Positions 4,782-45,347 of a DNA stretch of 64,000 nt are shown in pieces; positions within the stretch are counted from its first letter, which is position 1, and every line of letters starts with the position of its first letter. The notes below the pieces were generated by a model. The model saw nothing but the letters and a program-made list of their open reading frames with translations. It did not search any database and was not told the origin of the DNA. This DNA comes from Alphaproteobacteria bacterium (GTDB lineage Bacteria; Pseudomonadota; Alphaproteobacteria; UBA2966). The stretch spans positions 3,598,630 to 3,662,629 of the forward strand of contig OZ251449.1 in the NCBI GenBank assembly GCA_965242505.1, read 5' to 3'. The translations under genes were made by a program, and so were the position numbers.

Positions 4782-4975
4782 ACCCCCCTCCCGACCTCCC
4801 CCCTGTCAGGGGGGAGGAGAGCGCGTGGTCAGGGGGGAGGAGTGTGAATGGTCAGGGGGGAAGCATGGATGGTCAGGGGGGAAGAGCGTCAACTGCCCCT
4901 CCGTCCCCTTCTTCTCCCTCCCCCTGGCAGGGGGAGGGTCGGGGTGGGGGTCGCGCCAAGGGGGAGGAGGGGCGC
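4782..4975. repeat. REP-like GC-rich palindromic element cluster (family found throughout window)
   Basis: CCCCTCCCGACCTCCCCCCTGTCAGGGGGGAGGAG plus CCCTCCCCCTGGCAGGGGGAGGGTCGGGGTGGGGGTCGCGCC hairpin modules; bounds approximate. Confidence 0.8.
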
Positions 4976-6343: not shown

Positions 6344-8029
6344 TCACATGAAGTCGAAATCGCAGCCCTGGTCCGCCTGGAGGACGGAGTCCACGTAGAG
6401 CTTGAGGTATCCCCGCTCGCTCCCCGGATGGGGGGGCGGGGGTTCCCAGCCCTCCCGGCGGGAGCGGAGCTCCGCCGCGTCGACGTCGAGCTCCAGCCGG
6501 CGCGCCTCGACGTCCAGGGAGATCGCGTCCCCGTCGCGGACGAGGGCGAGGGGGCCGCCGACGCAGGACTCCGGCGTGACGTGGAGGACGACCGCGCCGA
6601 ACGCGGCGCCGCTCATGCGGGCGTCGGACACGCGCACCATGTCCTTGACGCCCCGCCGGGCGAGTTTCCTCGGTATGGGCAGGTAGCCGGCCTCCGGCAT
6701 CCCGGGCGCGCCCCTGGGGCCGGCGTTCCTGAGGACGAGCACGCTGTCCGCGTCGACGTCGAGGTCCGGGTCGTCGATCCGCCGGGCGAGGTCCTCCAGG
6801 GACTCGAAGACGACCGCCCGGCCCCGGTGGGACAGGAGCTCGGGCGACGCGGCGGAATGCTTGATGACGGCGCCTCCCGGCGCGAGGTTCCCGCGCAGCA
6901 CCGCCAGCCCGCCCGAGGGCCGGACGGGCCTGTCGGGAGAGCGGACGACGTCCTGCCCGGACACGCGCTCCCCCTCCTCGATGTTCTCGCCGAGGGGGCG
7001 GCCGGTGATCGTCGGCGCGTCGAGCGCGAGATGCGGCGCGAGCTCGCGCAGCACCGCGTTCAGGCCGCCGGATTCGTGCAGGTTCTCCATGTAGTGCTCG
7101 CCCGACGGCTTGAGGTCGACGAGCACCGGCGTCTCGCGTCCGATGCGGTCGAACTCGTCGAGGTCGATGGCGAGGCCCAGCCGGCGGGCGATCGCCGCGA
7201 GATGGATCAGGGCGTTGGTGGATCCCCCGATCGCCTGGAGGACGACCAGGGCGTTGCGGAAGGCGTCGGCGGTCATGACCTCCGACGGGCGCGGCCCGGA
7301 CTCCGCCATCTCGACGGCCCGGCGGCCGGTCCGTTCGGCGATCCGCAGGCGGTCGGCGTTGACGGCGGGGATGGCGCCGCCGCCGGGCAGCATCATGCCG
7401 AGGGCCTCCGTCACGCAGGCCATGGTGCTCGCGGCGCCCATGACCATGCAGGCGCCGATGGTGGGCGCCAGGCGGCCGGTGATCTCGTCGATGTCGGCGT
7501 CGTCGAGCTCGCCGGCGCGGTAGCTCGCCCACAGGCGTCGGCAGTCGGTGCAGGCGCCCAGGCGGCGGCCCCGGTAGCGGCCCGTCATCATCGGCCCGGT
7601 GACGACGGCGGCGGCGGGGACGTCGGCGCTGGCCGCGGCCATGAGCTGGGCCGGCACGGTCTTGTCGCAGCCGCCGATCAGGACCACCGCGTCCATGGGC
7701 TGGGCGCGGATCATCTCTTCGGTGTCCATCGCCATCAGGTTCCGCAGGAACATGCTGGTGGGGTGGGAGAAGGATTCGTGGATCGAGATCGTCGGGAAGG
7801 CCATCGGCATCCCGCCGGCCAGCATGACGCCCCGCTTCACCGCCTCGACGAGCTTCGCCATGCCCCCGTGGCAGGCGTTGTAGTCGCCGCCGGTGTCGGC
7901 GATCCCGACGATGGGGCGCGTCAGGGCGTCGTCGGAATATCCCATCGCCTTGACGAAGGCGCGCCGCATGTAGAGGGAGAAGGCCTCGTCGCCGTACTGG
8001 GCGAGGCCCTTCCTCAGGCCCTTTTTCAT
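6344..8029 (-). CDS. IlvD/Edd family dehydratase (dihydroxy-acid / sugar-acid dehydratase)
   Basis: True start MKKGLRKG (ATG 8029) inside spurious 755-aa ORF 6344..8611; IlvD/EDD conserved blocks (CDKTVP, GGSTNA). Confidence 0.7.
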   Translation of the reverse strand: MKKGLRKGLAQYGDEAFSLYMRRAFVKAMGYSDDALTRPIVGIADTGGDYNACHGGMAKLVEAVKRGVMLAGGMPMAFPTISIHESFSHPTSMFLRNLMAMDTEEMIRAQPMDAVVLIGGCDKTVPAQLMAAASADVPAAAVVTGPMMTGRYRGRRLGACTDCRRLWASYRAGELDDADIDEITGRLAPTIGACMVMGAASTMACVTEALGMMLPGGGAIPAVNADRLRIAERTGRRAVEMAESGPRPSEVMTADAFRNALVVLQAIGGSTNALIHLAAIARRLGLAIDLDEFDRIGRETPVLVDLKPSGEHYMENLHESGGLNAVLRELAPHLALDAPTITGRPLGENIEEGERVSGQDVVRSPDRPVRPSGGLAVLRGNLAPGGAVIKHSAASPELLSHRGRAVVFESLEDLARRIDDPDLDVDADSVLVLRNAGPRGAPGMPEAGYLPIPRKLARRGVKDMVRVSDARMSGAAFGAVVLHVTPESCVGGPLALVRDGDAISLDVEARRLELDVDAAELRSRREGWEPPPPHPGSERGYLKLYVDSVLQADQGCDFDFM

Positions 8030-38429: not shown

Positions 38430-39947
38430 ATGGTCGCGCGGGTGGGCACGGTAGCGTTCCAGGGCGTCGAGGTGCTCGACGTCGACGTGCAGGTGCAGGT
38501 CGCGCGCGGGGTGCCGGCCTTTCGCATCGTCGGCCTGCCCGACAAGGCCGTCGCCGAAAGCCGGGAGCGGGTGCGGGCGGCCCTGTCGGCCATGGGGCTG
38601 GCGCTCCCGGCCAGGCGCATCACCGTCAATCTCTCGCCGGCGGACCTGCTGAAGGAGGGCAGCCATTTCGACCTGCCCATCGCCCTCGGCCTGCTCACGG
38701 CCATGGACGTCGTGCCCGCCGACGCCCTCGACTCCTATGCGGCCCTCGGCGAGCTGGCGCTGGACGGCGCGGTCGCTCCCGTGGCCGGCGCCCTGCCGGC
38801 GGCCATCCACGCCGCGGCGGCCGACCGGGGCCTGGTCTGTCCGGCGCCCTGCGGCGGAGAGGCGGCGTGGGCGGGCGACGTCGAGATCGTGGCCGCGCCG
38901 TCGCTGCTCGCGTTCGTCAACCACGTCAAGGGGACGCAGGTCCTGTCCCGGCCCGAACCGGTGGCGGCGAACGACGCCGCGGCGATCCCGGACCTTCGCG
39001 ACATCAAGGGCCAGGAGAGCGCGAAGCGCGTCCTCGAAGTGGCGGCGGCGGGCGGCCACAACCTGTTGATGTGCGGGCCGCCGGGCTCCGGCAAGTCGAT
39101 GCTGGCGGCGCGGTTGCCGGGCCTGTTGCCGGCGATGGACGCCCACGAGATGCTCGAGGTCAGCATCGTCCAGTCGGTCGCCGGGCTGCTCGCGGGCCGC
39201 GGCCTCACCAACCGCCGGCCGTTCCGCGACCCGCACCATTCCACCTCGCCGGCCGCCATGGTCGGGGGCGGGATCCGGGCCCAGCCCGGGGAGATCTCGC
39301 TCGCCCACAACGGCGTGCTCTTCCTCGACGAGCTGCCGGAGTTTCCGCGGCCCGTCCTCGAATCGCTGCGCCAGCCGCTGGAGGTCGGGCGGATCACCGT
39401 GGCGCGCGCGAACGGGCACGTCACCTACCCGGCGCGGTTCCAGCTCGTCGCCGCCATGAACCCCTGCAAGTGCGGCCACTTCGGCGATCCGGCGCAGGGT
39501 TGCTCGCGGGTCCCGGGCTGCGCCCGCGACTACCAGGCGAGGCTGTCGGGCCCGTTCCTGGACCGCATCGACCTGCGGATCGAGGTGCCGGCGGTCGAGG
39601 TCTCCGATCTCGCGCTCCCGCCTCCCGCGGAGGGGACGGGGGAGGTCGCCGCGCGGGTGGCCACGGCCCGCGAGGTCCAGCGAAGCCGCCTCCGGGACGC
39701 CTCGGCGGGCGCGGTGCGGACCAACGCGGCAATGGACGGCGAACTGCTGGAACGCCTCGCCGCGCCCGACGCCGCCGGCGCGCGGCTGCTGGCCGAGGCG
39801 GCGGAGCGCCTGCGCCTCACCGCCCGGGGCTATCACCGGGTGCTGCGCGTCGCCCGCACCCTCGCCGATCTCGACGGCGCCGGCGGGGTCGGCCGGCTCC
39901 ACGTCGCCGAGGCGCTGAGCTACCGGCGGATGGCGGGGGTCTCCTGA
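38430..39947 (+). CDS. comM: YifB/ComM-family Mg-chelatase-like AAA+ ATPase
   Basis: Start MVARVGT; Walker A GPPGSGKS; Lon-like N-domain; C-terminal conserved region. Confidence 0.85.
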   Translation: MVARVGTVAFQGVEVLDVDVQVQVARGVPAFRIVGLPDKAVAESRERVRAALSAMGLALPARRITVNLSPADLLKEGSHFDLPIALGLLTAMDVVPADALDSYAALGELALDGAVAPVAGALPAAIHAAAADRGLVCPAPCGGEAAWAGDVEIVAAPSLLAFVNHVKGTQVLSRPEPVAANDAAAIPDLRDIKGQESAKRVLEVAAAGGHNLLMCGPPGSGKSMLAARLPGLLPAMDAHEMLEVSIVQSVAGLLAGRGLTNRRPFRDPHHSTSPAAMVGGGIRAQPGEISLAHNGVLFLDELPEFPRPVLESLRQPLEVGRITVARANGHVTYPARFQLVAAMNPCKCGHFGDPAQGCSRVPGCARDYQARLSGPFLDRIDLRIEVPAVEVSDLALPPPAEGTGEVAARVATAREVQRSRLRDASAGAVRTNAAMDGELLERLAAPDAAGARLLAEAAERLRLTARGYHRVLRVARTLADLDGAGGVGRLHVAEALSYRRMAGVS

Positions 39948-40005
39948 ATTGCGGAAATCGCGCGCTTGACCGAAAGAGGTATGAAGGAAAGTGCCGAAAT
40001 AACGC

Positions 40006-40033
40006 TTGACAGTCTCGGCACTCTCATTTAATG
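40006..40033 (+). promoter_or_regulatory. sigma-70-like promoter for IS1595-family transposase
   Basis: TTGACA (40006..40011), 15-16 nt spacer, TTTAAT/TTAATG; followed by an AAGGGGA RBS. Confidence 0.4.
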
Positions 40034-40059
40034 TCCGATTATTTCAAGGGGATATGGAC

Positions 40060-41040
40060 ATGTCGAAGGAAACCCCCAGAAAAGCCTACCGCGAAGGCAT
40101 CAGCATGGTCGAGCTGTTCCGGCGCTGGCCGGACGACGCGACTGCCGAGGCGTGGTTTGTCGCCCGCCGCTGGCCGGAAGGTGGCCACTGCCCGCATTGT
40201 GGCTCGACCGATGTGCAGTCCGGCGCGAAGCATAAGACCATGCCTTACCGCTGCCGGGCGAAGGAATGCGCAAAGCGGTTTTCCGCGAAGACCGGCACGG
40301 TCATGGAAGGCTCAAAGCTTGGCTTCCAAGTCTGGATGATCGCCACTTATCTGCTTTCGACTAGCCTGAAATCGGTTTCGAGCATGAAGCTGCATCGGGA
40401 TTTGAACATCAACCAGCGCAGCGCATGGTTCCTCGCCCATCGGCTGCGGGTCGCCTTGGCTGATCGGGAAGATGTATTCTCTGGCCCGATAGAGGCGGAT
40501 GAGACCTATGTGGGCGGCCGCCGGACCAACATGCCGAAGGCGAAGCGAAAAGAGCAGACAGGCCGCGGCACAGTCGGCAAGACAGCCGTCGTCAGCGTGA
40601 AGGATCGCGCGACAAGTCGTATTCATGTACAAGTCATCCCTTCCACTGATGGCGAAACCCTGCGATCCTTTATCCGCGACCATGCAGGGGAGGGAACCGT
40701 GGTCTACACGGACGGGCGTGGTGGCTACTGCGGGCTGGCGGCCGACTTCAAGCATGAGTCGGTCAATCATTCGGTCGATGAATATGTTCGCGGCATGGCC
40801 CATATGCAGGGCATCAAGAGCTTTTTGGTGATGCTGGATCGGGCGCATAAGGGACCATTCCACAAGTTCTCGCCGAAGTATTTTGACCGGTATGTGCAAA
40901 AAGTCTCTGAGTGCCACAACGCCCGTGACCGGGATATCATCGACATCATGGCGGCCTTCGCGGAAGGCGCGGTTGAGAAGCGTCTCCGCTACCGGGATTT
41001 GATTGCCGACAACAGCCTGCCTTTGGGGGCGCAGTCATGA
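40060..41040 (+). CDS. IS1595-family transposase (zinc-ribbon plus DDE)
   Basis: CPHCGS ... C..C zinc ribbon and an ISXO2-like DDE domain; ATG 40060 (or 40054). Confidence 0.8.
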   Translation: MSKETPRKAYREGISMVELFRRWPDDATAEAWFVARRWPEGGHCPHCGSTDVQSGAKHKTMPYRCRAKECAKRFSAKTGTVMEGSKLGFQVWMIATYLLSTSLKSVSSMKLHRDLNINQRSAWFLAHRLRVALADREDVFSGPIEADETYVGGRRTNMPKAKRKEQTGRGTVGKTAVVSVKDRATSRIHVQVIPSTDGETLRSFIRDHAGEGTVVYTDGRGGYCGLAADFKHESVNHSVDEYVRGMAHMQGIKSFLVMLDRAHKGPFHKFSPKYFDRYVQKVSECHNARDRDIIDIMAAFAEGAVEKRLRYRDLIADNSLPLGAQS

Positions 41041-42434
41041 TCGTGACGGCGGTATCCCCGCATGGAGGACCTACCGAAGAACGACAAGCATTGTCAGCGC
41101 GTTTCGCACCGCGTCTTGTCACCAGTGAGTTCTACTCCCGCAGGGTCGTCTCCTACCAAGGAAACCGTAAGGTGCCGGGCCTCCGGTGGATGAAATACAA
41201 GGAAGGTTTCTCCAGCCAGCTTGTGGCAGAATTGATTGAACAGGAGAATCCGCGCGCGGTTCTCGATCCTTTCGCTGGAATTTGCACAACGCCGCTTATC
41301 GCCGCTGGACAGGGACGCCGAGCAACAGGAATCGAAATCATGCCTGTTGGCGTGTTGGCCGGATCGGCTATTACAGAAGCGGCAAACGGTCTCTCATCGA
41401 GTGATTTCGATGAACATGCTTCTATCTTCTTGCAGTCTGTCAAAACGAAGAAATCTACCTCTGATTTCGCGTTCCCGCATGTGCGGATAACGGAGGGAGC
41501 CTTTTCCGGTGAAACAGAGAGAGAGATTGCCAAGGCAAGGCAATCTCTCTCGGAGATTGATAATGACGGATTGCGCTCACTCTTGGATTTGGCGTGTATG
41601 TCTGTCTTGGAGGAAGCTAGCTACACGCGCAAGGACGGTCAGTATCTCCGTTGGGACCGCAGGGCCAGAAGGTTGCTACGGTCGTCTGTGGATCTGGGTC
41701 CCATCCCCCGATTCTGTGACGCCTTGGAACGGCGGCTTGTGGAGATAGAGGAAGACATTGATTCACTCAAAAAGCAATTCGGGGGCGGAAAACCTAAGCT
41801 GATCATCGGATCATGCCTTGAATTGCTCAAGAGTATACCGGATGGCGAATTCGACATGGTGATTACATCACCGCCCTACGCCAATCGCTACGACTACACC
41901 CGCACATATGCACTAGAACTAGCATGGATGGGATTCGATCAAGGGGATTTTTCAGTGCTTCGCCAACGTATGCTGTCCTCGACGGTGGAAAACAAAACAA
42001 AGAGGGAAATTCTGGCAGGTGCCTATGGAACGGACTGTAGGGTATTTGATCTGGCCGCGCAAATGTATGATGGACAAGGTGCTGTCCATGAGGTGCTAAG
42101 CATTCTTAGGGAGAGAGAAGATGAGTTAAGTAACAAGAATGTACTGAAGCTCATCGAACAGTACTTTTTCGAGATGGCAATCGTCATATCTGAGCTTGGG
42201 CGCATTGTTCGCCCTGGTGGGGTTGTATTCATGGTCAATGACAATGTACAATACCACGGCGAGGAGCTGCCAGTGGATTTCATATTGTCAGATTTTGCCG
42301 AGAATTCTGGCTTTCATTGTGAGAGTATATGGAAGTTGGCCAGAGGCAAGGGGAATTCTAGCCAACAAATGGCTCGTTTCGGTCGCCGTGAACTGCGTAA
42401 ATGTGTTTATAGGTGGGTCCGATCCTATGACTGA
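41037..42434 (+). CDS. DNA methyltransferase (alpha-class N6-adenine/N4-cytosine; motif I LDPFAGICTT, motif IV SPPY)
   Basis: 465-aa ORF whose ATG overlaps the transposase stop (ATGA); about 50% GC. Confidence 0.7.
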   Translation: MIVTAVSPHGGPTEERQALSARFAPRLVTSEFYSRRVVSYQGNRKVPGLRWMKYKEGFSSQLVAELIEQENPRAVLDPFAGICTTPLIAAGQGRRATGIEIMPVGVLAGSAITEAANGLSSSDFDEHASIFLQSVKTKKSTSDFAFPHVRITEGAFSGETEREIAKARQSLSEIDNDGLRSLLDLACMSVLEEASYTRKDGQYLRWDRRARRLLRSSVDLGPIPRFCDALERRLVEIEEDIDSLKKQFGGGKPKLIIGSCLELLKSIPDGEFDMVITSPPYANRYDYTRTYALELAWMGFDQGDFSVLRQRMLSSTVENKTKREILAGAYGTDCRVFDLAAQMYDGQGAVHEVLSILREREDELSNKNVLKLIEQYFFEMAIVISELGRIVRPGGVVFMVNDNVQYHGEELPVDFILSDFAENSGFHCESIWKLARGKGNSSQQMARFGRRELRKCVYRWVRSYD

Positions 42435-43335
42435 CTACGTGCTCCGTTCCCGACTGTTTTCCGACATTCTCACCAAGCGGGAAGACAAAGCACAGCGACG
42501 CCTTATTGATGAATTCACTGACGAGTTAGACTTTGAACCCATTGACGAACTCATGATCAGCTTATCGGCTTGGGAGTATGTACTATCGCTAGGTGTCGCT
42601 CCGAAGGTTGTGTTCGCGCATCCTGATGTCCTCCGATCTCACCCAACGACTTCGCTCTACTATCGAGGCATGGCGCTTCTTTCCCGGAAGCGGGTTGGGC
42701 AGGCGGCCGCATCTGTGATGAATTGGGAGGACGGAACACGTACGATACCGATCCAACAAGACGCGGCCAAAAGGGTCGCCTGTCTCTACAACACCATGAT
42801 TTCGTCGATCATCGAAGGGTCGTCCGACTGGACGCTGGATAACGGCTACAGGAACATCCTTGCCACAATGGGGATTACGCTTGATGGCATGTTCCGCAAT
42901 AAGATCGGCGATATTGCCGAGACTCTTGTCAAAAACCGGATAGTGTCATGGCTGAAAGGTAAAGGACTTATCCCCCCGGATAGTCCGGAATGTGGGCGAT
43001 ACCTGCTGCCCGATGACACGCTCATGCAATACGGCTCGGACCCGGACATAGATTTCGTCAGGCGTGAACGGCTCATTGCTACCATTGAGATCAAAGGTGG
43101 TCGTGATCCCGCCGGTGCTCTCGAACGTCTCGGCGCTATGACAAAGAGCTTCGCCGAAACACCGCCCGGTTGTGTGAACTTTCTAGTCGCAGGCATCATA
43201 ACGCTGGAAATGCAAACGCGGCTCGATGCGATGGGGAATGTCAAAGTCTATCTGCTGGACGACGTCTCTCAAGATGGAGAGCCGTGGGATGACTTCACGA
43301 ATGAAGTCTTCCACCACGCAATCCGCGTGATCTAG
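42427..43335 (+). CDS. type II restriction endonuclease (PD-(D/E)XK; DPDID ... EIK)
   Basis: Start MTDYVLRS overlaps the MTase stop by 8 nt; 302 aa; restriction-enzyme-like block near the C-terminus. Confidence 0.5.
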   Translation: MTDYVLRSRLFSDILTKREDKAQRRLIDEFTDELDFEPIDELMISLSAWEYVLSLGVAPKVVFAHPDVLRSHPTTSLYYRGMALLSRKRVGQAAASVMNWEDGTRTIPIQQDAAKRVACLYNTMISSIIEGSSDWTLDNGYRNILATMGITLDGMFRNKIGDIAETLVKNRIVSWLKGKGLIPPDSPECGRYLLPDDTLMQYGSDPDIDFVRRERLIATIEIKGGRDPAGALERLGAMTKSFAETPPGCVNFLVAGIITLEMQTRLDAMGNVKVYLLDDVSQDGEPWDDFTNEVFHHAIRVI

Positions 43336-43556
43336 CATGGAGGGAGCGATGATCGAGAAACCGAAGCTGCAAGAGGTTGAAGTCGTGCATCCCAACTACC
43401 AGCCGAGTAAGGCTGAATTGGAGGAAGATATGCGGGTCGAGGCGGCCTTCGATGAAGCCGTGGCCGCGCTCTCCCAGCCCGTCAACATCCGCTACATCGA
43501 CCGGCCGCGATGAGCGGCCTTCGGCACTTTCCTACATAACCCCCCCTTCAAAGGAA

Positions 43557-44435
43557 GTGGAGCATTCGCCGGTCTTCTCGTTCGGTTCGGTCGAACTGTA
43601 CGAGGCCGACTGTTTCGCGTGGCTTGAAACGCAGCCCGAGAACAGCGTTCACGGCGTGGTCACCGATCCCCCGTACGGACTGGTCGAATACAGTCCGAAG
43701 GAACAGGAAAAGCTCCGCAACGGCCGAGGGGGAGTCTGGAGGCTCCCGCCCTCGTTCGACGGGCATCGAAGGTCGCCCCTGCCCAGATTCACGACGCTGA
43801 CGCGAAGCGACCTGGACGACATGCGGGAGTTCTTCACGCGCTGGGGAAGGCTCCTTCACGAGGTCCTCGTTCCGGGCGCCCACGTCTTCGTCGCGTCGAA
43901 CCCGCTCGTGTGTCATCGCGTGGCGGACGCCTTGTCCGACGCCGGCCTCGAGGCCAGGGGCGCGATCGCGCGCCTCGTCATGACGATGCGCGGCGGCGAC
44001 AGACCCAAGAACGCGCACGACGAGTTTCCCGACGTGACGGTCATGCCGCGTTCCATGTGGGAGCCGTGGCTCCTGTTCCGGAAACCTCTGGAGGGCAGGG
44101 TTCAGGACAATCTGCGGCGCTGGAAGACCGGCGGGTTGAGGCGCGTATCCGGCCGGCGGCCGTTCGGGGACGTCATCGAATCGCATCCGGCGAGGCCCGC
44201 CGAACGAAGCATCGCCCCGCATCCGTCCCTGAAACCGCAATCGTACCTGCGGCGGATCGTCCGCGCGGCGCTGCCGTTCGGAGAGGGTGTCGTGCTCGAT
44301 CCGTTCGCGGGGTCGGGCTCCACGCTCGCCGCGGCTTCCGCCCTGGGGTACCGGGCGATCGGGATCGAGATCGATCCGGAATACGTTCGGGTCGCCGGGG
44401 AAGCCGCGCCGAAACTGTCGGAACTTTCCGTCTGA
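43557..44435 (+). CDS. DNA methyltransferase (beta-class; DPPY motif IV then LDPFAGSGST motif I)
   Basis: 292 aa assuming a GTG start at 43557 after an AAAGGAAG RBS (no in-frame ATG near the N-terminus); second MTase of the island. Confidence 0.7.
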   Translation: MEHSPVFSFGSVELYEADCFAWLETQPENSVHGVVTDPPYGLVEYSPKEQEKLRNGRGGVWRLPPSFDGHRRSPLPRFTTLTRSDLDDMREFFTRWGRLLHEVLVPGAHVFVASNPLVCHRVADALSDAGLEARGAIARLVMTMRGGDRPKNAHDEFPDVTVMPRSMWEPWLLFRKPLEGRVQDNLRRWKTGGLRRVSGRRPFGDVIESHPARPAERSIAPHPSLKPQSYLRRIVRAALPFGEGVVLDPFAGSGSTLAAASALGYRAIGIEIDPEYVRVAGEAAPKLSELSV

Positions 44436-44504
44436 CGGGCGCTTGGCCCGCAATTCTCGCACCGGCGGAGGATCGAGGAGTGCGCGGCGTTGCGGAACCC
44501 CGAT

Positions 44505-44560
44505 CCACCCCCCCTCCCGACCTCCCCCCTGTCAGGGAGGAGGAGTGTGGATGGCTCTCT
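44505..44560. repeat. REP-like palindromic element
   Basis: CCACCCCCCCTCCCGACCTCCCCCCTGTCAGGGAGGAGGAG. Confidence 0.8.
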
Positions 44561-44668
44561 CCGCGCGTTCCGGACTTGACGGAGTCGTCCGGGTATACTC
44601 CGTTCACGATCGGATCGGCGGCGTCCAGCGCGCGCCCAACATAACCCGAACCGAAAAAGGAGGCTTCG

Positions 44669-45175
44669 ATGGCCTACACGCTCGAAGCGTTCGCCGCCGA
44701 TTGCAAGGCCGCGCTGATCGCGGAACCCGGTCCCGAGGGCCGCGAAAGGATCCGCGGGATGCTGGAACGCGCCTTGACGGACGACGGGTTCATGCGCGCG
44801 CACTTCGGAACCGGCCAGGACTCCGAGCGCAACGTCCTCTACCGGGATCCGGACATGGGTTTCTGCATCGTCGCGCACACCTACGCGGAGGGGACCGCGG
44901 CGGACCCGCACCATCACGGGCCTGCGTGGGCCATCTACGGCCAGGCGGAGGGGATCACGGAGATGACGGACTGGAGGTTGGTGCGGGAACCGGCGGACGG
45001 CGAAGCGGGAAAGGTCGCGGCGGAACGGACCTACACGCTCGAGCCGGGCGACGCCAAGGTCTACAACGAGGGCGACATCCACTCGCCGCGATGGGAGGGG
45101 CCGACCCGCCTGTTGCGGATCGAGGGCCGGGACATGGCCACGGTCCGGCGCGACCCGCTGGAACCGATAGCCTGA
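44669..45175 (+). CDS. cupin-domain protein
   Basis: 168-aa ORF; His-rich metal site (AHTYAEGTAADPHHHGPAWA) in a cupin fold. Confidence 0.5.
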   Translation: MAYTLEAFAADCKAALIAEPGPEGRERIRGMLERALTDDGFMRAHFGTGQDSERNVLYRDPDMGFCIVAHTYAEGTAADPHHHGPAWAIYGQAEGITEMTDWRLVREPADGEAGKVAAERTYTLEPGDAKVYNEGDIHSPRWEGPTRLLRIEGRDMATVRRDPLEPIA

Positions 45176-45204
45176 CCCGGATCGCGCGGCGTTGCGGGGC
45201 CGCG

Positions 45205-45300
45205 TCCACCCCCCCTCCCGACCTCCCCCTCTTCTTCTCCCTCCCCCTGGCGGGGGGAGGGTCGGGGTGGGGGTTGCGCCAGGGGGGAGGAGCGCGGACG
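45205..45300. repeat. REP-like palindromic element
   Basis: Same family modules. Confidence 0.8.
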
Positions 45301-45347
45301 GATCCCGCGGCGCGCCTGAAGGAGGAAGGACAACGACGCTGAAGCGG

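Follow-up and report, generated by a model that had tools for sequence, protein, structure and literature searches.

A Type II restriction-modification gene pair as predicted cargo of an IS1595-family transporter insertion sequence downstream of comM in an alphaproteobacterium

Gene content of the locus and extent of the element

The stretch of DNA considered here, referred to below as the window, comprises 64,000 nucleotides from an alphaproteobacterial genome (GTDB lineage UBA2966; assembly GCA_965242505.1, contig OZ251449.1, positions 3,598,630 to 3,662,629). Downstream of comM, which ends at position 39947 of the window, five genes follow one another on the plus strand: an IS1595-family transposase gene (tnp; 40060-41040, 326 amino acids (aa)), a gene for a Type II DNA methyltransferase (M1; 41037-42434, 465 aa), a gene for a restriction endonuclease (R; 42427-43335, 302 aa), a small open reading frame (ORF; 43349-43513) and a gene for a second methyltransferase (M2; 43557-44435). 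An initial annotation of the same DNA had placed these ORFs and the upstream comM correctly and had assigned all five genes to one mobile element of 4.5 kb. The comparisons described below point to a shorter unit: with high probability, the block from about 39974 to 43544 (~3.57 kb) is a single IS1595-family transporter insertion sequence (transporter IS, tIS) made up of a left repeat, tnp, the M1-R restriction-modification (R-M) genes as cargo, a 54-aa ORF and a right repeat.

The limits of this unit are given by an inverted repeat pair found by repeat search at 39980-39998 and 43520-43538, which is 19 nt long with 18 of the 19 positions complementary and whose right tip extends to 43544. It encloses tnp, M1, R and the small ORF, leaves M2 outside, and has no further copy between tnp and M1. 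Inverted pairs of 10 nt or more number 226 in the region; the 19-nt pair found no match in 100 shuffles with three mismatches permitted, and it is kept as the boundary in about 40 homologous elements. The left repeat (39980-39998, plus strand, TATGAAGGAAAGTGCCGAA; family consensus GGGGATTATGTAGGAAAGTGCCGAAA) retains the core only, and the junction before it (39974-39979) reads AAGAGG in place of the outer tip GGGGAT of intact family members. The right repeat (43520-43544, minus strand) is almost full length, its minus-strand reading being GGGGGTTATGTAGGAAAGTGCCGAA, that is, a nearly complete GGGGGTTATG... end. The terminal inverted repeats that the IS1595 family requires are accordingly both present, and the occurrence of one tnp and one repeat pair in the window, with a single copy of the element, rules out a composite transposon formed by two flanking IS copies.

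The initial annotation had instead drawn the element from 39946 to 44460, with a 9-bp inverted match (GAATTGCGG) as its ends and a methylase, nuclease, small ORF and second methylase as a type IIS-like module. The five genes are indeed co-oriented and closely spaced, and the 9-bp match does exist, albeit at 39946-39954 and 44448-44456 rather than at 39949-39957 and about 44447-44455. However, it is at chance level, with 18 of 100 shuffles giving at least two matches, and its left copy shares bases with the comM stop codon and is found unchanged at the IS-free locus L079 of a close relative, which identifies it as host sequence rather than the end of an element. M2, for its part, lies beyond the conserved right repeat, has no homologue in any of 58 related loci, and occurs free of any IS in relatives, being followed in L079 by an HNH nuclease gene of its own. 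The GC content tells against the longer block as well: about 50% had been ascribed to the whole of it, but low values (47-60%) are confined to 40000-43500, whereas M2 has 65-68% and the host about 72%. As M2 does not share a unit with the R nuclease, the two-methylase arrangement lapses too, and a homologue of M1 on an Enterococcus faecalis plasmid is likewise found in a one-methylase pair, next to a single type II nuclease. A 4.5-kb element is therefore hardly credible.

The family identity proposed for the transposase is confirmed by profile matches to PF12762 (DDE_Tnp_IS1595; 120.4 bits, cut-off 27), NF033547 (150.3 bits, cut-off 75) and, for the N-terminal Zn ribbon, PF12760 (28.7 bits, cut-off 25.4), the CPHCGS...CR motif of the latter being conserved in the alignment; the ORF, with Zn ribbon and DDE domain, is intact. 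Its stop overlaps the start of M1 in the sequence ATGA at 41037-41040, a coupling that had already been read from the sequence and is kept in the related element L011 described below. In M1, motif I (DPFAG) near residue 80 precedes SPPY near residue 277 by about 200 residues, which is the alpha order assigned to it earlier; along with these FxGxG-type and SPPY motifs there is a match to the PADLOC profile MTase_II PDLC03224 (6.5e-115), and SPPY suggests that M1 methylates N4-cytosine. The R gene overlaps M1 by 8 bp (ATGACTGA), again as annotated, and its product, in agreement with the PD-(D/E)XK assignment, belongs to the XcyI family, matching RE_XcyI (PF09571; 44.6 bits, cut-off 25) and preserving the PD...ExK motif as PD...EIK. 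A sequence search of the PDB with R returned nothing meaningful.

Thus, M1 and R are adjacent methyltransferase and endonuclease genes with recognisable motifs, as expected of a Type II (IIP) R-M system. Compared with L011, R has a ratio of nonsynonymous to synonymous substitution rates (dN/dS) of 0.095 and M1 a proportion of nonsynonymous differences (pN) of 0.15 with synonymous sites saturated; both genes are intact and, by these measures, under purifying selection, and the pair probably continues to work as an R-M system of the ordinary Type IIP. XcyI, XmaI and Cfr9I recognise CCCGGG, and this hexamer is mildly under-represented in the host DNA (34 observed versus 50 expected), a difference that is uninformative for the specificity of the system. 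The more distant M1-R pairs at loci L075-L078 have no transposase gene nearby, and these, together with the one-nuclease pairing of M1 on the Enterococcus plasmid, indicate that M1 and R are a complete two-gene system that was captured by the tIS lineage.

The small ORF had been given 59 aa (43337-43513); the reading from its first ATG, at 43337, has 58, and a start at 43349, giving 54 aa, is more likely in view of a preceding ribosome-binding site (GGAGGGAG) and of the fit with homologues. By tblastn it is present at about 45 loci, in every case after tnp and immediately within the right repeat whatever the cargo, which marks it as a gene of the IS backbone and not a component of the R-M module. 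Across the 47 aligned core codons of 21 loci, the differences at codon positions 1/2/3 number 3139/2371/5094, with 39% of the differing codon pairs synonymous, a pattern that marks the ORF as protein-coding. No match was found for it in Pfam, NCBIfam, PHROGs or PADLOC, and an AlphaFold model (mean predicted local distance difference test score, pLDDT, 75; predicted template modelling score, pTM, 0.29) has two short helices only.

Upstream of tnp, direct reading locates a putative promoter at 40006-40034 on the plus strand, with TTGACA (40006-40011) and TAATGT (40029-40034) 17 nt apart, although a scan for consensus promoters did not flag this pair. It is set between the repeat core AGTGCCGA at 39990-39997 and an inverted copy of that core, TCGGCACT, at 40015-40022, the latter falling between the two hexamers, and most family members whose left end is complete share this layout. 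Such a layout suggests autoregulation by a repeat-binding protein.

Related elements and the cargo slot

A scan with the transposase, covering one genome per species, yielded 58 loci, all of them in metagenome-assembled genomes (MAGs) and mostly in Alphaproteobacteria, with the closest 77% identical. One of these, L011, in an Alphaproteobacteria MAG, is the counterpart of the window element for which a search in other genomes had been proposed: between repeats at its positions 7230 and 11473, its tnp, M1, R and small ORF are arranged as in the window, the ATGA junction included (77%, 76% and 78% aa identity for the first three). The sequence TTCATGAA is duplicated on both sides of it as a perfect 8-bp target duplication, the insertion having broken up a host ORF. 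The enclosure of the four genes by one repeat pair and one target duplication shows that the R-M pair moves as the cargo of a tIS and is not a mere neighbour, in keeping with the earlier suggestion of R-M genes as IS1595 passengers. The window element has the corresponding composition of a transporter IS, with M1 and R between tnp and the right repeat and one transposase for all. Between its left repeat and tnp promoter L011 also has an additional stretch of about 620 bp (7256-7870), with two minus-strand reading frames of 103 and 92 aa that lack a Pfam match; the first of these appears HicB-like by eye, and a degenerate second left-repeat-like sequence is seen at about 7880.

These observations bear on the alternative that a plain IS of about 1-1.4 kb landed beside a pre-existing R-M system, whose genes would then be neighbours rather than cargo. 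It can draw on the M1-R pairs L075-L078, which stand apart from any transposase gene, and on the existence of cargo-free elements, the smallest of which, at 1386 bp, is present in about 15 copies in a Thermohalobaculum MAG. However, no repeat separates tnp from M1 in the window and the two genes overlap; the initial annotation had considered ends tightly flanking the transposase alone, and the right repeat is found instead after the small ORF, downstream of R; L011 holds all four genes within one repeat pair and a perfect target duplication; and M1 and R are absent from this locus in IS-free relatives. An R-M system that was merely adjacent to the IS is, in consequence, very improbable.

Target duplications of 8 bp are seen in at least 15 related copies, L011 included, and are perfect around the cargo-bearing copies L014, L018, L019, L022, L023, L031 and L053; cargo-bearing copies also occur several times over inside single MAGs. 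Across the related elements, tnp and the small ORF are separated by anything from 51 to 4435 bp, and the cargo occupies one slot, from the tnp stop to the small ORF. Within it are found, in L018, a beta methylase accompanied by a SmaI-like nuclease; fusions of a methylase to Mrr in L054 and to HNH in L022; a methylase on its own in the L023 group; and, further, a DUF6998 protein matching a PADLOC methyl-directed nuclease at 1.8e-34 (the L036 group, several copies of which lie in one MAG), a dCTP-deaminase-like gene (L020) and, in several elements, lipoproteins of unknown function. In the window, L011, L018, L054, L022 and L023 the first cargo gene abuts or overlaps the tnp stop. The lipoproteins form two predicted families (~310-520 aa) that recur in L020, L021, L055 (on the minus strand), L026 and L029, and not all contents of the slot are hence related to R-M.

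The 1386-bp elements consist of the left repeat, tnp, a 105-bp spacer, the small ORF and the right repeat (consensus GGGGATTATGTAGGAAAGTGCCGAAA), and are flanked by perfect 8-bp AT-rich target duplications. Their small ORF lacks a stop codon ahead of the right repeat and runs into the flanking DNA. In L001 (8999-9062) and the other 1386-bp copies the spacer encodes DGAFKLIVTSPP in frame with the small ORF. This peptide is similar to motif IV of M1, DGEFDMVITSPP, with E = 0.014 in a tiny database, and has no match in Pfam. The cargo-free copies may, on this resemblance, be deletion derivatives of a methylase-carrying tIS.

Decayed members of the family are also seen. In the relics L059-L063 the R C-terminus, the small ORF and the right repeat survive. 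In L071-L073, which are Joint Genome Institute (JGI) metagenome contigs from an organism of ~43% GC, an M1-R pair 72-76% identical to that of the window directly follows a frameshifted tnp pseudogene of the tIS clade (C-terminus ...NGLNAGARS*), and the small ORF and right repeat have been lost; this is a second, independent case of R-M cargo outliving its IS. A megablast of the island against plasmids gave no match, a protein search of plasmids with the transposase gave at most 37% identity, and close relatives of the transposase (at least 46% identity) came from MAGs only. Exact-sequence look-ups of the transposase, R, M1, the 54-aa ORF, ComM and a neighbouring 168-aa protein produced no usable match.

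The resident methyltransferase M2 and the state of the window copy

M2 (43557-44435, plus strand, outside the right repeat) has the beta motif order, and its earlier assignment to the beta class stands. It belongs to a very large family, members of which are about 70% identical across phyla. In L068 and L069, whose ComM is 95% identical to that of the window, comM is followed by a spacer of ~210 bp and M2 with no IS, and in L079 (ComM 99%, flanking DNA 96.5-97% identical) by a 216-bp spacer, M2, a gene for a 202-aa HNH protein and a major facilitator superfamily (MFS) transporter gene; L070 (ComM 94% identical) has no IS and also no M2. The occurrence of comM, spacer and M2 without the IS in L068, L069 and L079 indicates that M2 is a resident, variable and independent gene and not the second methylase of an IS-borne system. 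Its partner in L079 may be the HNH nuclease encoded next to it, and this partner may have been lost in the window strain.

The interval from comM to the MFS gene (39948-45305 in the window) is a variable hot spot when set against L068, L070 and L079. It contains a 103-aa gene in L070, M2 with a 208-aa gene and an HNH fragment in L068, M2 with the 202-aa HNH gene in L079, and in the window the tIS, M2, a copy of a host repeat and a 168-aa gene (44669-45175) without a family match. A comM-targeting genomic island with an integrase was considered and rejected, there being no integrase and the insertion lying downstream of an intact comM.

The comparison with L079 also gives the state of the inserted copy. 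Homology between the two stops at window position 39973 and resumes at 43549, and 182 bp of the L079 spacer (6618-6799) are missing from the window; the insertion and the deletion that goes with it have left about 12 bp of the native 216-bp spacer upstream of M2. Copies with target duplications invariably have GGGGAT or GGGAAT as the outer 6 bp of the repeat, where the left end of the window copy has AAGAGG. A check for a target duplication at the window copy found none, the best of several alignments between 39966-39979 and 43545-43554 agreeing at 3-4 of 8 positions. From the replaced tip, the absent duplication and the missing 182 bp we infer a deletion at the left junction.

The transposase has changed as well. 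The first two catalytic D residues are kept (EADETY, YTDG), and the rest of the DDE(K) set is not intact: K255 stands in place of the E of GIESFW, and D262 in place of the K seven residues on. In the alignment 21 of 22 relatives keep this E and 20 of 22 keep this K, with L011 and L001 intact at both. We assign E255 and K262 as predicted catalytic residues by alignment to the family motif (GIESFW...K) and by analogy with DDE transposases. E255K, K262D, E283K and R287C fall on almost invariant positions of the clade, and in total the window transposase carries 17 private changes at columns conserved to 90% or more, versus 3 each in L011 and L001.

An element that is still active and autonomous, its odd left end being a tolerated variant, might be argued from the four full-length ORFs and from the intact 19-nt core and promoter layout. 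Against this stand the replacement of the outer 6 bp that are otherwise invariant in copies with target duplications, the lack of such a duplication here along with 182 bp of adjacent host DNA, the E255K and K262D changes in the DDE(K) motif with 15 more private changes at conserved columns, and the single copy in the window; continuing activity is accordingly unlikely. The replaced left tip, the absent duplication, the lost spacer and the two substitutions together indicate that the window copy is most likely a fossil unable to move, with its R-M cargo still being maintained. Some points weigh against the account given here of a tIS that arrived by transposition and then decayed. With neither a target duplication nor an intact left tip in the window, its own transposition is read from its relatives; the dN/dS of the window tnp, 0.20, is only mildly above the 0.13 of its relatives; and the promoter and the co-transcription of tnp, M1, R and the small ORF are deduced from sequence only.

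On this account, the following course of events is the most probable. In intact relatives the Zn-ribbon/DDE transposase would act on both repeats and move the whole unit, generating an 8-bp AT-rich target duplication, and the cargo would probably be expressed from the tnp promoter as one operon. The element would have entered the spacer between comM and M2, immediately upstream of the resident M2. At that time or afterwards, a deletion would have removed 182 bp of spacer together with the left target copy and the outermost 6 bp of the left repeat. The transposase presumably gained its substitutions at the assigned catalytic E and K, and the copy most likely became fixed. Since the insertion replaced the promoter region of M2, the expression of that gene may depend on the element, M2 probably being transcribed by read-through from it.

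Two further features of the host DNA may be mentioned. The sequence at 44509-44564, annotated earlier as a repetitive extragenic palindromic (REP) element, does recur at least 18 times in the window: it is a GC-rich repeat of ~40-56 bp (CCACCCCCCCTCCCGACCTCCCCCCTGTCAGGGAGGAGGAG-like), with 92-97% identity among copies, which lie on both strands and mostly between genes (at 4783, 13039, 16639, 17925, 19096, 19290, 19463, 24302, 25538, 45184, 48568, 57269, 58048, 59009, 62269, 62424 and elsewhere), and is best described as a REP-like host repeat or one resembling a miniature inverted-repeat transposable element (MITE). The PstI site CTGCAG is absent from the window, versus about 14 occurrences expected in its host part under a Markov model, and is present once in L068 and twice in L070 per 17.5 kb. 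Its absence suggests a long-standing CTGCAG-specific restriction system in the window lineage, and no link of this absence to M1/R or M2 was established.

Comparison with known systems

The window element belongs to a known kind, the R-M-carrying IS1595 tIS, and no new type of system is called for. What could be new is the gene next to the right repeat and the strong bias of the cargo to methylases and nucleases. A broader proposal, which we hold tentatively and as less probable than its negation, is that these elements are an undescribed clade of IS1595 tIS, residing mainly in MAGs of marine and environmental Alphaproteobacteria, that serves as a dedicated shuttle for modification and restriction genes, with a fixed slot, cargo coupled to tnp and at least six exchanged methylase or nuclease cargos. 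If so, the 54-aa protein would be a new transposition accessory factor or regulator, the cargo would be under the tnp promoter lying between two inverted copies of the repeat core, and the dead copies would show how hosts keep the R-M genes delivered to them.

In any event, the locus offers a clean case of a complete Type II R-M system travelling on a transposon of ~3.6 kb without plasmid, phage or integrase, in which the stages can be compared—the intact L011, the empty site in L079 at 96.5-97% DNA identity, and the decaying copies in the window and in L071-L073. For annotation, M2 is to be treated as a separate resident gene, and the recurring slot with varied methylases and nucleases, accompanied by the small ORF, is a candidate delivery vehicle for defence genes.

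As for the R-M genes themselves, R is like the XcyI family in the motif (S/T)EPDI...IE(I/V)KGG.DPAGALER, which is common to it and an annotated Nostoc XcyI-family enzyme; the identity to the annotated family member is only 32%. A further likeness to XcyI-type systems is that the SPPY methylase of the window fits N4-cytosine methylation; its alpha motif order sets it apart from them.

As a class, transporter IS are well established, and descriptions restrict them to two families, IS1595 and IS66 (Siguier, Gagnevin & Chandler 2009, Res Microbiol 160:232; TnCentral preprint 10.1101/2021.05.26.445724), and the IS1595 family is characterised by 8-bp duplications, a Zn ribbon in all subgroups but IS1016, a DDE domain and a single transposase gene (PMC8101967). 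The window element resembles IS1595 tIS in having one Zn-ribbon/DDE transposase, short terminal repeats and passengers downstream of tnp inside the repeats, as well as, in its relatives, the 8-bp target duplication. Unlike them, its clade conserves a further gene in the backbone, namely the 54-aa ORF beside the right repeat, and has cargo consisting mostly of methylases and nucleases. Within the family, the ISNwi1 subgroup of ISfinder has ends of the form GGnnATTAT and a DDEK+ER4 signature; the consensus end GGGGATTATG, GIESFW...K and EF..RHN would presumably fit this, which makes ISNwi1 a candidate subgroup for the clade.

Reports of IS-flanked R-M systems and solitary methylase genes, among them Siguier 2009, are cited by Furuta, Abe & Kobayashi 2010 (PMC2853133). 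Among the transposon-like R-M units that these authors describe is one of Type IIG in Neisseria gonorrhoeae, which has inverted repeats of 26 bp, a duplication of 8 bp and a COG3677 transposase-like gene. This is the likeness to the window element: R-M and transposase-like genes inside short repeats with an 8-bp duplication. However, in the gonococcal unit, seen in one species, the Type IIG gene is truncated and what remains of the transposase appears to be inactive (PMC2853133), whereas in the window element a Type IIP system of two genes is closely coupled to tnp, L011 provides an intact counterpart with a target duplication, and the backbone recurs with many cargos.

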